DNA of 64,000 bases, taken from positions 4,278,001-4,342,000 of the forward strand of contig OX597835.1 of NCBI GenBank assembly GCA_951406725.2. The letters are read 5' to 3'. The notes beneath the pieces were generated by a model. That model was given only the letters and a program-made list of their open reading frames with translations. It was not told the DNA's origin and ran no database searches. The position numbers and the translations under genes are program-made. Below are positions 41,003 to 54,592 of the stretch, piece by piece (within the stretch, counting starts at the first letter, position 1; every line of letters starts with the position of its first letter). Source of the DNA: Octopus vulgaris. Its lineage: Eukaryota.

Positions 41003-41188
41003 AGGCGGAGAATTCACGAAAAAACAAAAGACGAAGACAGGTGGTGTAGAAAATAAGCAGATGTATTTGTATAACGCTCAGGAATAGAAAAAGTCTTTTA
41101 CGTTTCGAGCCTACGCTCTTCCACAGAAAGGAACACAGAAAGAAACAAGGAGAGAAAAAAATGTGTGTGGTGGCTACCGATCTATCAG
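41003..41188 (-). mobile_element. ~185-bp (TA)n-embedded element carrying a hammerhead-like motif
   Basis: Near-identical copy at 54418-54592; (TA)n on both sides. Confidence 0.8.
41095..41130 (-). ncRNA. Minimal type I hammerhead-like ribozyme, variant core CUGUGGA
   Basis: cttt-CTGTGGA-A-GAGC-gtag-GCTC-GAAA-CGT-A-aaag: stem I cttt/aaag, 4-bp stem II, palindromic ACGT stem III, GUA site. Confidence 0.55.
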
Positions 41189-43564
41189 ATATATATATAT
41201 ATATATATATATATATATATATATATATACCGTCCACAAGTTAATTCCATGAGAATTACCTTGAGGAAAATTTTCATCGAATTTAGTTTCATCGAGTTAA
41301 TTCTTAAGTAAATTTATGTTCTGAACAGTTTCATGTCTAATCCACTTGGCTGACAGCTGCTCACAGATGGATCCTGTGTTTCCTTTTTGAAAACACCGCC
41401 TGATAAGAGATGCTGCTCCCGACTCTGCACATCTAATAACGAAAGACTTGATACGATTTACGTTCACGAATATGTACTCTATATAGTGTGTCAGGATTTG
41501 GCTTTTATTTAATTCTGTTATGATGTAGGGTCAATATAGGAGACCCTATAAAGTCATTAACATTTTGTAGAAATTGAATATATTTGGTGATAAATACCTC
41601 ATTAATACTAATTATAACGTACCTCGTAGACCGCGTATGTGTTGTATTACAGACTGTATGTCTATCTATCTATCTATCTTTCTATCTATCTATCTATCTA
41701 TCTATCATACACACACATATATATACAAACATACACGCACACATACATACATACATACACACACACACACACACACACACACACACACACACACACACAC
41801 ACACACACATATATATATATATATATATATAATGAAAGACAGGGAGAAGGATATATATATATATAGAAATAGAGATATACATGTGTCTTTATATGTATAT
41901 ATATATATTCATATATCTATATGTGTGAATGTATGTAGATGCACATATATATAAATGCACATACATAAGTATACATACAAACAGAGAGAGAGAGAGAGAG
42001 AGAGAGAGAGAGAGAGAGAGAGAGAGAGAAAGAGAGAGAGAGAGAGAAAGAGAGAGAGAGAGAGAGATAAGTGATCCTCTTGAAAACTTCTCATGGCTGG
42101 CTGAACACCAATCTAAAAAGTCAACTCTGGACAAAATTAAGGAAAAAAGAAAACAAAGAAATAAAGACAAAAAAAAACTCAAATTAAAATTAAAATTGAA
42201 TTACAACATAATTTTAAATCAAATTAATATCTATATTAAATTAAAAGTGAATTAAAATTAATAAGACATTAAAATAATAATAAAAAAAAAACTTTTTAAT
42301 TAATGTGATAAAGTAGTTAGAAGTTCTTAACTTTCAGCTCATAGTCATTTTGGTAAAGTACATAGCAAGACACACACACGTACACACAATATGAACACTC
42401 ACACACACATATATGTATATATATGTGTACCTATATGTATGTATAAATATCTATAAGTATATATATATAACTATATATATAAGTGTATATATATGTATAC
42501 ATATATGTATATATAGTTATATATATATATATATATATATATATATATATATATATATATATATATATATAAGAAAAAAGGTTTGAAAATGCAATTTAAA
42601 CGATGTTTATTTACTTAACCGGTATATATATATATATATATATATATATATATATATATATATATATATACATGTACGTACACACATGCATGTACTTGCA
42701 TATAAATGTATATACACAAAGATGAGACACACAAAGGTTTGAGACAGCGATGCTCGACAGCAAAGGTTTGTAAAGTCCTTTGCTTACGTAACTTTGATTT
42801 ATCAGCATAAATATTCGGGTGCATTACACATACAGAAATACACATTTATTACATATATACACTCCTCTATATGCACAAATACATACATACGCGCACACCT
42901 ACGTATGTATAATGTACATAACTACATATATAATATCTATCTTTATACATATTTTTCATCTTCTATTTTTTTTTATTTGTGTCAGTCATCAGATTGTGGC
43001 CATGCTGGGGCTTCGACTTGTAGGAATTTTAGTCGAATAAATCAACCCCAGTACACACACATATAAGCACACATTTATACATAATACACTCGCACATATG
43101 ATTTTTTTAAGTTGTTGTTAGAGCAGTGAATAATAAAAAAAAAATAGAAGACAGAGAAAGACAATCTTGGGGTTGTTTTATGAAGAACTCAACTAGAGCA
43201 AGTTCGTTCTGCTTGCAACCCAGGGTTTCTTGCAATTCAGAAAAAAATACTGAAGTTTTTAGAGAGAGACTTACGCTATGAACATGTTTAATTGGAACAA
43301 CTAAAGTCATTTTATTAAAAATGTTTTGTCTACTTTCGTTTTCCTTCTGAGTCAACGATGCTAATCATCTGAAAATGTTCACTTTGTAGTGAGAAGATTC
43401 TGAGGACAAGTCTACAACTGTAAGGACAAATGAAGATAGACTTAACAGAATTGTGCGTGTACAAGCTTACACACACATACACACAAATACATACTCAAAT
43501 ACATATACACAATTACACACACACACAAACACACATACATATATATATGTACACATAAGTATGA

Positions 43565-43890
43565 ATGCTCACCAATGGAGAAGTTCTTAAGCAGATCAGG
43601 CCGAAAATGTCGCTAGAAGCTAGGATCACCAAGCATAGATTGGCATATTTCGGTCATATTATGCGGAGAAAATCCCTGGAGAAGGACATCATGCTCGGAA
43701 ATGGTCAGTGGCAAGAGAGGAAGAGGCCGACCAAGGACCCACTGGCTTGACACCATCAAGAGTGATACCGGAATGGCCATAGCCAATCTGAAAGAAGCGG
43801 CCCAGGATAGAACTGACTGGAGGACACTGATCCAACGAGTAACCGAGAGTCGACTTCGACTGAGCGGATAGATAGATAGATAGAGATAGA
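43565..43890 (+). mobile_element. RTE-clade LINE 3' end with (GATA)n tail
   Basis: TNGEVLKQI..RLAYFGHIMRRKSLEKDIMLG(frameshift)..GKRGRGRPRTHWLDTIK..AQDRTDWRTLIQRVTESRLRL, the typical RTE/BovB C-terminus. Confidence 0.9.
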
Positions 43891-46020
43891 TGTATGAATG
43901 CATATACATAAATGCGTATACATGAAGACTGTAATTCGATTCTAAGTAATGCCATCTCCTGATTGTTCACTTAGATACGAGCAGCACAGATCATAGGTGT
44001 AGCTTTTCAGTTCAACTCCTAACGCCAGTTCTTCTCCATACTCTGTGCAAGTACATACATGCATGCATGCACACATGCATACATACGTACATGCGTACAT
44101 GCACACACAGACACATGCATATATGCATATATTTATATAAGCATGTATGCTTTCTTACACACAGACGCGCACACATACATGCGGGTACGTCTGTGTATGT
44201 ATATATTAATACATACATACATACATACATTCATATATACATACATACATACATTCATATATACATATATATATACATACATATAAACATATATATATAT
44301 ATATATTCATATACATATAAATATAGACAGATATACACACCCATATATATATATATATATATATATATATATATATATATATATTCATATATATATATAC
44401 ATATATACATATATATATACATATATATATGTATGTATATATATATGTATGTATATATACATATATATATGTATGTATATATATGTATATATATACATAT
44501 ATATATGTATGTATATATATATGTATGTATATATAAATATATATATATATATATATATATATATATATATATATAACTATATATACATATATGCGTGTAT
44601 ATTTGTAAAGCGATTATATGTAGCGTGATTGTGTGTGTATGTATTTAGGAATGTGTGTACATACAAATGTATTGTAACTTAATTACAAGCAGTGGGTGTA
44701 TATATTTTATATAATATATATATATATATATATATATATATATATGTATTTATATACATATTTCAGATGTATATAGACATCAAAGGACATGTGCGAAGCA
44801 TTTTCTAGTCAATTACTTCCATCAATTCACCAAACCATCTCAACTTACGAAACAAATCTAACCCCGACCACGTTTGTCCTCTACACGGTTACCCACCGTG
44901 CGAGGGTCTGTTTTCCGTAACTGACCCACTAGAATTCTTAACACGCACGCACACACACACACACAAGCTATTCAAACACGCACGAGCTATTTATATACAC
45001 CCACACCCACACACACCTACACGCACGCACACACACACACATACATATATACACATTGATGGCTTTCAAGGGACTTTAATCTGATTGTTCGACTTGCTAG
45101 AAAGAGAAGGCTAATACCTCTCAAAACATAAATCAGCATTGATCAGATCCTTGCTCTAAGACATTTCAGCCGCGACCTTCCTATTTGATTTCGTAAAGGT
45201 CACCTGTGACCATCCTGCTTGTTTTTGTAAAGATAGGATTGCTTCCAATTAGGCTTCCCTCATTTGTATGTTAGTATGTGATTTGACGAGAATTTGGTTG
45301 CTATTTCTTGTAGCTTCGAATGGTCGTCAGAAATTAACTCATTGGTTTCTCGCCACCAACCTTAGACAAGATCTTTTTTTAAGTTCTGCAAATATCATTT
45401 TACTTGTGTTGTGACTTTTCTCGGATCTTCCTGTAACTGAAGACAGGATCACCTTTTATCACGTGTGTTGTTTTTGCCAATCAGCGAACAGTACTCTGTC
45501 AGCCATTTTAGTGATTTCAACAAATTCAAACTACTTTCTTCCTTTGTTTCCTTCATTTGACAGTTGCAGACCAAAAGCAAACTGTTTTATTTCCTTCTGA
45601 CTTCATTCTTTTACGTTCATTACTTTGGTAAATCAAGATCTGTTACATCCTCTTTTAGAATTACCGACATATTTCACGCCGGTGTTAACACCTCACACGT
45701 TATCCAACTACTATTGCGTAATTGCAGGATTTATTTATTTATCAATTCGTGGAAAATGAAGGAAAAATAGGATAACTTATTACGAATTTTATCTCTGCAT
45801 ACATGCCTTTAGTTTCTTAATTTTGTTTTATTCACTGGACTTTGGCCATGCAGGAGCACCAACTACTATAATTATAGTCGATTGCATCGACCTCACCAAT
45901 TCATTGACATTTATTTTATCAAATTCAGAAAAATAAATAACAAAGATTAATTATATTAATTAAGCAACGAGAAGATGGACTTGGTATTAAACTTTATTCT
46001 GTACAACGTTCGTTTCCAAC

Positions 46021-46144
46021 CTGTCTTGCTATTGTCATTATGTGTCGCACCCATTTTGCAGTCTGGATCTCATCAGGTACATCCATAAAGTTGTATCTCA
46101 CTAAAAACCCTTGAACGTCGGCTACCATGTTGTTATATATCCGT
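46021..46144 (-). CDS. Candidate internal exon (124 nt, phase 2-0)
   Basis: Acceptor TTTATTCCCTCCCTAACTAG and donor CAG/GTTGGA; open frame RIYNNMVADVQGFLVRYNFMDVPDEIQTAKWVRHIMTIARQ with protein-like composition. Confidence 0.4.
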
Positions 46145-53974: not shown

Positions 53975-54058
53975 CCTGGGGCGATTTGTTCGACTAAAGG
54001 CGGTGATCCACCGTGGCTGCAGTCAAATGAGTGAAACGTGTAAAAGAGTAAAAGAATG
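53975..54058 (+). mobile_element. SINE family A tail fragment in (TA)n
   Basis: CCTGGGGCGATTTGTTCGACTAAAGGCGGTG..CAGTCAAATGA..GTAAAAGAGTAAAAGA. Confidence 0.8.
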
Positions 54059-54102
54059 AATATATATATATATATATATATATATATATATATATATATA
54101 AA

Positions 54103-54295
54103 TCTTTATTTGTGAATTAAGTCCTCCATTAGTGTCCCGTTAAGAAAAGTAGGAAAAATATCCTAGTGTCTTAGCAATTTTGGAAGGTAAACACCTTTCT
54201 CCATTCGATCAACTTGAAAAATTGCTAAGACCCTAGGTTATTTTCCTATTTTTCTTAACGTAAAACGAATTGTAGCCTTAATTCACAAATAAAGA
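54103..54295. mobile_element. Foldback/MITE with long imperfect inverted arms abutting (TA)n
   Basis: TCTTTATTTGTGAATTAAG..CGTTAAGAAAAGTAGGAAAA..CTTAGCAATTTT is mirrored by AAAATTGCTAAG..TTTTCCTATTTTTCTTAACG..CTTAATTCACAAATAAAGA. Confidence 0.8.
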
Positions 54296-54417
54296 AATTA
54301 TTTCCACTAATGCGGTGTTGAGCACTCGTTTTCATCGTTCGACATTTACGTATGTATACATACATATATATATATATATATATATATATATATATATATA
54401 TATATATATATATATAT

Positions 54418-54592
54418 AGTGAGAGTTTACGAAAAAAAAACAAAAGACGAAGACAGGTGGTGTACAAAACAAACAGATGTATTGGTATAACGCTCAGGAA
54501 TAGAAAACGTCTTTTACGTTTCGAGCCTACGCTCTTCTACAGAAAGGGACAGAGAAAAAACAAGGAGAGAAAAAAAAATGTGTGTAGTGGCT
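54418..54592 (-). mobile_element. Second copy of the (TA)n-embedded hammerhead element
   Basis: Colinear with 41003-41188. Confidence 0.8.
54511..54546 (-). ncRNA. Minimal type I hammerhead-like ribozyme, variant core CUGUAGA
   Basis: cttt-CTGTAGA-A-GAGC-gtag-GCTC-GAAA-CGT-A-aaag; differs from the 41095 copy only at the variable N7 position. Confidence 0.55.

Follow-up and report, generated by a model that had tools for sequence, protein, structure and literature searches.

The A6U change in the hammerhead core of two short elements from Octopus vulgaris is the consensus of their family and not decay of individual copies. Hammerhead descriptors take A6 to be invariant. Three public runs under three organism labels (X3, X8 and X6; RNA is no more than a guess for the last, which served for sequence variation alone) supplied contigs that were aligned to element E1. 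Canonical A6 accounted for 63,502 of 7,015,042 depth units in X3 (0.9%), 4,804 of 908,718 in X8 (0.5%) and 897 of 776,053 in X6 (0.1%), on 86, 66 and 26 contigs, respectively; these contig depths do not measure copy number and are biased to sequences near E1. Since positions 6-7 have about 60% of the depth over stem II, diverged relatives with a canonical core may be clipped and thus undercounted. A true family variant, as an earlier note on this DNA had proposed, is thereby supported, and a return of the consensus to CUGANGA, the outcome which that note had named as fatal to its view, did not arise for the E1/E2 family. In the raw-read run X21, nine matching reads were found among 1,934 million letters, and all five reads over position 6 (two start sites, 20 other differences) carry the canonical A and belong to a distant relative. 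The low yield of X21 might be due to filtering or to an organism other than the label states.

The window, that is, the whole stretch of 64,000 nucleotides that was analysed, contains three elements with their motifs at the positions given earlier (Table 1). All three motifs equal the minimal hammerhead of Penelope-like elements (PLEs) except for one core change each. They are spelled CUUU-CUGUGGA-A-GAGC/GUAG/GCUC-GAA-ACGU-A-AAAG in E1 and GUUU-CCGACGA-A-GAGC/UCC/GCUC-GAA-ACGU-U-AAAC in E3, and E2 departs from E1 at one of 36 nt, position 7, as had been noted. The predicted succession of stem I, core, A, stem II, palindromic ACGT and UH was found in each, with type I topology, a flush 4-bp stem I (24 of 24 cells paired), an extra A between positions 9 and 10.1, a G10.1-C11.1 pair, a 15.1-16.1 palindrome and a UH cut triplet. 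The GAAA and ACGT previously listed in tandem are both present but share one A (GAA-ACGU), and stem III consists of A15.1-U16.1 around a 2-nt loop. Neither CUGANGA nor its U3-A8 variant occurs in these cores, which read CUGUNGA in E1/E2 and CCGACGA in E3. A relaxed descriptor run over the 64-kb window returned no perfect-core hammerhead and three with one mismatch, namely E1, E2 and E3, and none in any of 10 block-shuffled windows; allowing two mismatches added one poor match at 55926. Covariation, which had been put forward as evidence, did not stand up: it affects one of eight pairs (C-G vs G-C at the outer end of stem I), no pair of stem II varies, and the score, reached by 176 of 500 shuffles, is not in itself significant. 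The E3 core lies one transition from the common CUGACGA, and its U4C, seen in one copy, is probably a private mutation or decay of that canonical core.

Table 1. Elements, flanking repeats and hammerhead parts in the window.
Feature	Position	Strand	Remark
Element E1	41005-41187 (41003-41188 in the earlier note)	minus	near-full-length copy, U6-core family; sequence comparison
Element E2	54420-54593 (54418-54592 in the earlier note)	minus	5'-shortened copy of E1 family; sequence comparison
Element E3	51407-51621 (51407-51622 in the earlier note)	plus	separate family from E1/E2; 5' boundary undefined
(TA)n run, 5' side of E1	41189..41229		repeat listing
(TA)n run, 3' side of E1	40985..41004		then (GA)n and (GATA)n
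(TA)n run, 3' side of E2	54364..54418		
(TA)n run, 3' side of E3	51622..51675		
Pyrimidine/U-rich tract upstream of E1 hammerhead	41131..41165	minus	composition
Downstream motif TTCCTGAGCGT of E1	41074..41084	minus	
Downstream motif TTCCTGAGCGT of E2	54490..54500	minus	
Downstream motif TTCCTGAGCGT of E3	51544..51554	plus	
E1 hammerhead	41095..41130	minus	minimal type I; descriptor scan
E1 stem I	41130-41127/41098-41095	minus	
E1 core CUGUGGA	41126-41120	minus	U6 at 41123, N7 at 41122
E1 extra A	41119	minus	
E1 stem II	41118-41107	minus	
E1 G12-A14	41106-41104	minus	
E1 palindrome ACGU	41103-41100	minus	
E1 H17	41099	minus	predicted cut 3' of H17
E2 hammerhead	54511..54546	minus	minimal; core CUGUAGA 54542-54536, H17 at 54515
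E3 hammerhead	51492..51526	plus	minimal; core CCGACGA 51496-51502 (U4C), loop II UCC, H17 = U at 51522

E1 and E2 are 90% identical, and E1 is without about 10 nt of the family 5' end: contig loose ends past 41187 (82 in X8, 29 in X6; agreement 0.46-0.5) extend it by about 10 nt before turning TA-rich. The one BLAST match of E3 to E1/E2 surrounds the hammerhead, with 72% identity over 61 nt, so that the single family of the earlier note becomes two, which have in common only the hammerhead, the pyrimidine tract (in E1, 82% C+T over the 45 nt preceding C3) and the 11-mer TTCCTGAGCGT. This shared downstream sequence is indeed in all three elements; it lies 14, 14 and 21 nt past H17 in E1, E2 and E3, with a chance level, from composition over 100 sites, of about 1e-5. 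Variants of TTCCTGAGCGT are also present in contig loose ends of other subfamilies. The distance from H17 to the 3' end is 96, 97 and 100 nt. As claimed before, the elements abut (TA)n, directly at all three 3' ends; at the 5' side this holds for E1 (a long run) and weakly for E2 (a short TATATA), and E3 has no TA there. The elements measure 175-216 nt with a GC content of 38-44%, and ORFs overlapping them gave no Pfam match; the elements are probably non-autonomous. No remnant of a reverse transcriptase (RT) or GIY-YIG nuclease was found among the 148 ORFs of the window, and the PLE link thus rests on architecture. A tRNA-derived SINE was rejected: GCTCGAAAC resembles a B box, but T-arm pairing is absent and T runs precede it, and ARAGORN found no tRNA gene in the window.

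Much of this architecture has precedents. The minimal hammerheads of metazoan PLE pseudo-LTRs (Cervera and De la Pena 2014, PMC4209133, text and Fig. S3) are likewise type I, mostly dispersed singles, with a short stem I, an extra nucleotide between A9 and G10.1, a G10.1-C11.1 pair, a palindromic GAAA-CG-UH stem III and a U-rich 5' flank. In contrast, 56 of 56 representatives there have A6, and here stem II has only 4 bp and no ORF is linked. The descriptor of that study required A6, the sole core variant in its Fig. S3 is U3-A8, and it includes no cephalopod. The variants of Lunse, Weinberg and Breaker (2017), compared by description only, from the title and a review (PMC6765202), share the short palindromic stem III and the PLE association, with dimer cleavage. 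Activity is low when position 6 is changed (PMC3088659). Natural A6C hammerheads, known in phage Bcep176, are slow but active and prefer Mn over Mg, and U4C supports viroid infectivity (PMC3088659; PMC7151607). These cases alter the same positions with slow but detectable cleavage; they are, however, single isolates with fuller architectures and, at position 6, a C, whereas the U6 of the present family is fixed, on a minimal scaffold, in an animal retroelement of high copy number.

That standard searches miss these motifs, as anticipated, was borne out by Rfam, which reported no hammerhead for E1 (five matches) or E3 (two matches) at E up to 10, nor for the whole window at E up to 5 among the best 150 of 557 matches, which were miRNA models picked up through microsatellites and one coronavirus UTR model. 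The stem II-GAAACGT pattern occurred in no viral contig and no prokaryote genome searched; one metagenome match (L001) was set aside as chance, as it has no core in register upstream. Titles and abstracts retrieved in literature searches mention no natural A6U or CUGUNGA hammerhead family and, for hammerheads and retrotransposons in Octopus, no U6 family. The minimal scaffold and the Penelope link are already well described, and what appears to be new is U6 as a family consensus, with known variants compared partly by description.

The variation within the contig sets points to the U6 hammerhead being a selected natural variant, with putative cutting activity. Position 7 is U in 35-44%, A in 19-31%, G in 19-22% and C in 13-15%, and is the sole one of 104 non-CpG sites with all four letters. 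At H17, A is replaced by U in 20-22% and G stays below 3%. C3, U4, G5, G8, A9, A13, A14, A15.1 and U16.1 each vary by less than 3%, as do the extra A and G10.1-C11.1 save for CpG decay at C11.1; CpG sites have decayed by 2-10%. In X3, three of 30 non-CpG hammerhead sites (N7, H17 and outer stem I) vary by at least 3%, compared with 22 of 74 flank sites; a Fisher test on these thresholded and depth-weighted contig data gives p = 0.04. In outer stem I, 5-9% of depth has the pair broken, with no compensating change listed, and loop II, expected to be free, varies little. Depth is maximal on the hammerhead and falls toward the element 5' end, and loose ends reveal subfamilies with differing flanks joined to the hammerhead, one of them with CUGUUGA (40 contigs, agreement 0.99).

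The minimal scaffold, the U6 consensus, the free N7 and H17 and the 3' ends in (TA)n are the observed components of the reading that we prefer, to which we give an even prospect of being right as a whole: a PLE-derived, PLE-mobilised, TA-targeting short element whose hammerhead is selected and is slow or conditional. E1 and E2 would be dispersed copies of a high-copy, non-coding retroelement of about 195 nt, derived from the PLE pseudo-LTR (3' end), with E3 in a sister family. A TA-targeting PLE protein would mobilise them in trans; we infer a Neptune type, whose one matching feature is the (TA)n insertion pattern. A preference for (TA)n has been described for Naiad PLEs and is a hypothesis for Neptune PLEs (PMC8557442), and recently active PLE families are reported from Octopus vulgaris (PMC13282606). 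The GIY-YIG nuclease would nick a (TA)n run, and RT would start about 95-100 nt downstream of the cut site and copy mostly uncleaved RNA, which would leave the hammerhead intact mid-element. In Poseidon PAc of Anolis the hammerhead similarly precedes the 3' end by roughly 90-100 nt and the targets are AT-rich, with reverse transcription starting 85-92 nt beyond the cut site (by subtraction from the data of PMC11167929), to be set against the 96-100 nt seen here; PAc differs in being autonomous, in its ORF beginning in stem II and in its canonical C3-G8 core tested in vitro. The Anolis hammerhead cuts only with protein, and insertion in vitro is unimpaired by hammerhead mutants (PMC11167929).

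Because of the 2-nt loop a monomer could not close stem III, and two copies would pair via ACGU and cut 3' of GUA/GUU. A6U is expected to slow cleavage strongly, leaving an attenuated, conditional ribozyme (protein-assisted and/or metal-dependent), which selection on source copies would preserve. The predicted pairing probability of stem I in whole elements is 0.001, 0.000 and 0.055, and the active dimer fold is evaluated at -10.9, -10.9 and -5.7 kcal/mol, about 10-17 above the dimer MFE. A CCYGAGC motif was considered as an off-switch pairing with the stem II 3' strand and G12; feasible in principle, it was not adopted, its predicted probability being only 0.03-0.22. The specific proposal that CUGUNGA is a selected, catalytically competent core, forming a dimer ribozyme switched by PLE protein or metal in a non-autonomous TA-targeting PLE derivative with very many copies in several related (probably octopus) genomes, is tentative, somewhat short of an even chance.

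As to origin only, and compatible with the other readings, the copies might be 5'-truncated tails of an autonomous PLE and no independent non-autonomous family, which is possible with the balance rather against it. Most PLE insertions are 5'-truncated and single minimal hammerheads are usually so read (PMC4209133), E2 is shortened relative to E1 and depth drops toward the 5' end; on the other hand stand the TA-like loose ends upstream of E1, with their limited agreement, and the finding that only 0-1% of aligned records continue unlike the stretch.

Among explanations of the core itself, a catalytically dead hammerhead retained as a folded signal for the PLE protein, with A6U favoured since uncleaved RNA serves for insertion and host transcripts escape cutting, is rather unlikely. 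The strongly deleterious effect of position 6 changes (PMC3088659), PAc insertion in vitro from mainly uncut RNA with no need of hammerhead activity (PMC11167929), the weak stem I and the conservation of loop II, as of a protein site, fit it. Yet variation falls precisely on N7 and H17, which catalysis leaves free, every general acid/base and core position is retained, and the shortest active PAc template, from ORF +20, starts past the first core strand, so that binding does not require the core to be preserved. Amplification of one A6U master copy, with an unselected motif and its apparent constraint due to chance or ascertainment, is improbable: the modest Fisher value, the existence of canonical-core relatives (the X21 reads and the A6 contigs) and the lack of significant covariation would agree with it, but the four letters at N7, each with 13-44%, imply several source lineages, distinct at N7, at H17 and in whole flanks, that keep U6 and the remaining core in runs with three organism labels.

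The weakest explanation, a true non-LTR retrozyme whose tandem units are cut, circularised and re-inserted to leave solo offspring, is highly improbable, since no tandem unit was found in the window among the best 150 of 175 repeat rows, the best-supported 3' loose ends enter (TA)n, and the three back-going contig joints that could be head-to-tail junctions have single-locus depth (4.5-10.5, vs about 1e6 on the motif), even if units spaced by long TA runs would escape short contigs. Animal non-LTR retrozymes are themselves proposed to be PLE-derived and PLE-mobilised (PMC7229834; bioRxiv 2026.07.22.740005), and the elements resemble them in being non-coding, within 170-400 nt, below 45% GC and of hammerhead type I, with monomer copies common in some families (bioRxiv 2026.07.22.740005). 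Published retrozymes nevertheless form tandem arrays and circular RNAs and have canonical cores, mostly with loop-loop contacts (PMC7229834), and the label "retrozyme-like" given earlier is not retained for these dispersed, (TA)n-embedded copies with a minimal variant core.

With U6 fixed in a high-copy family while N7 and H17 drift, the natural core consensus would be wider than assumed, and genome counts of PLE hammerheads would be too low. The U6 family also bears on what PLE hammerheads are retained for, cutting or providing a fold to the element protein. If CUGUNGA is indeed competent, host transcripts would hold many latent self-cleavage sites that are invisible to CUGANGA searches.

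Re-inspection of the window bore out three hammerhead motifs at the coordinates assigned to them in the earlier note, each within a short (TA)n-associated element (E1, E2 and E3; see table). A relaxed descriptor (stem I of at least 3 bp, core with at most one mismatch, stem II of at least 4 bp opening with G-C, then GAAA-N0-4-UH) gave no perfect-core match and exactly three one-mismatch matches in the window, namely E1, E2 and E3, and no match in any of 10 shuffled windows. Rfam scans of E1 and E3 with E up to 10 returned no hammerhead, as had been predicted of a motif that standard searches would miss. 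E1 and E2 share 90% identity across 174 columns; their hammerheads differ at one of 36 positions, position 7. The likeness of E3 to this pair is confined to the hammerhead surroundings (72% over 61 columns), a pyrimidine tract (82-87% C+T over 45 nt in the elements) and an 11-mer common to all three, 14-21 nt past the cut site; E3 thus represents a second family, and the single family first proposed does not hold. The predicted cut site, H17, lies 96-100 nt from the 3' end of each element. All three 3' ends pass into (TA)n, in a window where about 2% of positions lie within 5 nt of the edge of such a run; the abutment claimed earlier therefore stands on this side but not on the 5' side, where a long TA run is found at E1 only. 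Covariation, also invoked earlier, is thin evidence: all 24 stem cells are paired across the three elements, 1 of 8 pairs is changed on both sides, and the score was equalled by 176 of 500 shuffles.

Positions in the window of the hammerhead elements and other repeats
Feature	Positions	Strand	Description
E1	41003-41188	minus	U6-core family
E2	54418-54592	minus	U6-core family
E3	51407-51622	plus	second family
CCYGAGCG motif	41074-41084, 54490-54500, 51544-51554		past the cut site
Half-core repeats	27865-28150, 29414-29694		TA-associated short pair, 91.5% alike over 142 columns
Inverted repeats	52933-53124, 54103-54295		self-complementary, ~195 nt, 76% arm identity, MITE-like
Dispersed duplicate	10075-10461, 12711-13097		387 nt, 96.6% identity
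Tandem duplicate	7218-7876		direct, 328 nt, 96-97%
SINE-like families	4927-5331, 32116-32535, 51676-51811 and others		several, high-copy, adjoining microsatellites

The E3 core is a single transition away from CUGACGA, a core that occurs in several published minimal hammerheads of Penelope-like elements (PLEs) (PMC4209133), and for this reason decay is in our estimation the likelier reading of its U4C change, which is also a known viroid variant (PMC3088659). For E1 and E2, in which core position 6 is U instead of the canonical A of CUGANGA, public runs were searched with most of E1. At least 21 runs carry it (21 of 24 among the matches listed), from 10 studies under four organism labels, one of them possibly the source of the window itself. 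Four runs were aligned to E1 at 80% likeness, with differences listed from 3%; three of these, from three studies under three labels, are given as contigs (19,380 aligned in X3, 9,756 in X8 and 4,982 in X6). Canonical A6 accounts for 0.9% of depth in X3 (63,502/7,015,042), 0.5% in X8 (4,804/908,718) and 0.1% in X6 (897/776,053), which upholds A6U as a family variant rather than decay. Single changes beside position 6 are detectable, since all four letters occur at position 7 (U 35-44%, A 19-31%, G 19-22%, C 13-15%); at H17, U replaces A in 20-22%. No variation at the 3% threshold was listed at C3, U4, G5, G8, A9, the extra A, G10.1, A13, A14, A15.1 or U16.1. Decay at CpG sites amounts to 1-10%; it affects G12 (2-5%) and also the palindrome's CG (4-9%). 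Of the non-CpG sites in X3, 3 of 30 vary in the hammerhead (N7, H17 and outer stem I) versus 22 of 74 in the flanks (41037-41094 and 41131-41148; Fisher p = 0.04).

Contig depth is highest on the hammerhead motif, and the loose ends, where contigs run past or away from the E1 alignment, join it to subfamilies with different flanks, one reading CUGUUGA (40 contigs, agreement 0.99) and others retaining versions of the downstream motif. Because decay after insertion would not produce variant shares as high as 13-44%, the data point to several source lineages, every one keeping U6. The pattern is, judged from sequence, that of a constrained hammerhead with the altered consensus CUGUNGA, and the fixation of A6U in a high-copy family with N7 and H17 free is the best-supported, and a surprising, point. 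The CCYGAGCG motif is kept in both families, and loose ends show it in additional subfamilies whose flanks differ; it is a candidate binding site for a mobilising protein, and could pair with the stem II 3' strand, with a folding probability of only 0.03-0.22.

Several results weigh against the reading of a constrained U6 hammerhead. Contig depth does not equal copy number and is biased to E1-like sequence, and depth at positions 6-7 is about 40% below that on stem II, so that diverged canonical subfamilies may be undercounted; A6-bearing contigs number 86 (X3), 66 (X8) and 26 (X6), at low depth. In the fourth run, X21, only 9 raw reads from 1,934 million letters aligned to E1, the family being nearly absent from this run. 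Canonical A was read in 5 of 5 covering position 6 (window 41095-41160; two start sites), with 20 other differences from E1 and a 14-nt insertion upstream; these five reads come from a distant relative whose core is the canonical CUGAAGA, possibly ancestral-type or autonomous. Loop II varies little, contrary to the freedom expected of it, and 5-9% of depth shows a disrupted outer stem I pair. Stem I hardly forms in folding predictions, which gave pairing probabilities of 0.001, 0.000 and 0.055 for stem I and 0.76, 0.29 and 0.56 for stem II (E1, E2 and E3, respectively), and placed the active dimer fold 10-17 kcal/mol above the dimer minimum, with nearest-neighbour energies that leave the core out.

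Upstream of E1, the loose ends extend the element by about 10 nt before turning TA-like (82 and 29 contigs at an agreement of 0.46-0.5). Just 0-1% of aligned records continue unlike the E1 stretch. These observations favour a short unit, about 195 nt long and flanked by TA at either end; simple loss of the 5' part of an autonomous element is a less likely but real alternative. Among the 148 non-repetitive ORFs of at least 62 aa in the window there was no reverse transcriptase or GIY-YIG remnant; Pfam gave 8 weak matches in 7 of them, every one under its cut-offs.

The SINE-like families of the window presumably resemble octopus SINEs, which, together with the abundance of microsatellites in the window, would fit the octopus origin supposed in the earlier note. 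The half-core repeats carry, on the plus strand, CTGAAGA followed by a small hairpin, with no GAAA/UH after it, and recall the 'HHR_half_core' cases of Naiad elements (PMC8557442). They have a 9-mer in common with the loose-end sequence immediately upstream of the E1 5' end, probably by chance.

The U6 motif would act in the manner of a PLE minimal hammerhead: every structural feature tested is present except the canonical core. No linked ORF was seen in the window, so that the U6 hammerhead is filed as a putative variant and not as a plain member. Fig. S3 of PMC4209133 has A6 in 56 of 56 representatives, a set without cephalopods and biased by its descriptor. No report of a hammerhead with A6U or CUGUNGA was found in the literature searched; the main survey of such variants (Lunse et al., 2017) may contain one.

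The scaffold is the one known from PLE minimal hammerheads, whose monomers are inactive and whose dimers show weak cutting (PMC4209133). The PLE of Anolis makes nicks in AT-rich DNA and begins reverse transcription 111-118 nt into its ORF; its hammerhead cuts at +26 of the ORF and only with protein present, the template being mainly uncut RNA (PMC11167929). A (TA)n bias is reported in Naiads and hypothesised for Neptune (PMC8557442). The leading reading, to which we give an even chance, is a PLE-mobilised short element with a slow hammerhead acting as a dimer: a TA-targeting PLE protein would mobilise a short pseudo-LTR derivative using uncut RNA, and two copies would pair via ACGU to form stem III and be cut slowly after GUA/GUU, aided by protein or metal.

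Changes at position 6 reduce hammerhead activity, and a natural A6C variant prefers Mn (PMC3088659, PMC7151607); the loss of activity (PMC3088659) speaks for a fold that is conserved but catalytically dead, which is a lesser though serious possibility. A neutral founder effect is improbable. Least probable is a true tandem retrozyme: three back-going joints are readable as head-to-tail junctions, at a depth of only 4.5-10.5, so tandem arrays appear not to be the main form, and with the canonical core of non-LTR retrozymes also lacking, the earlier retrozyme-like label is not supported.

For a PLE-mobilised element with a slow dimer hammerhead, attenuated cutting might let copy number rise to high levels while sparing host transcripts and the element's own template, and the predicted cleavage of the U6 core is a cheaply testable question.
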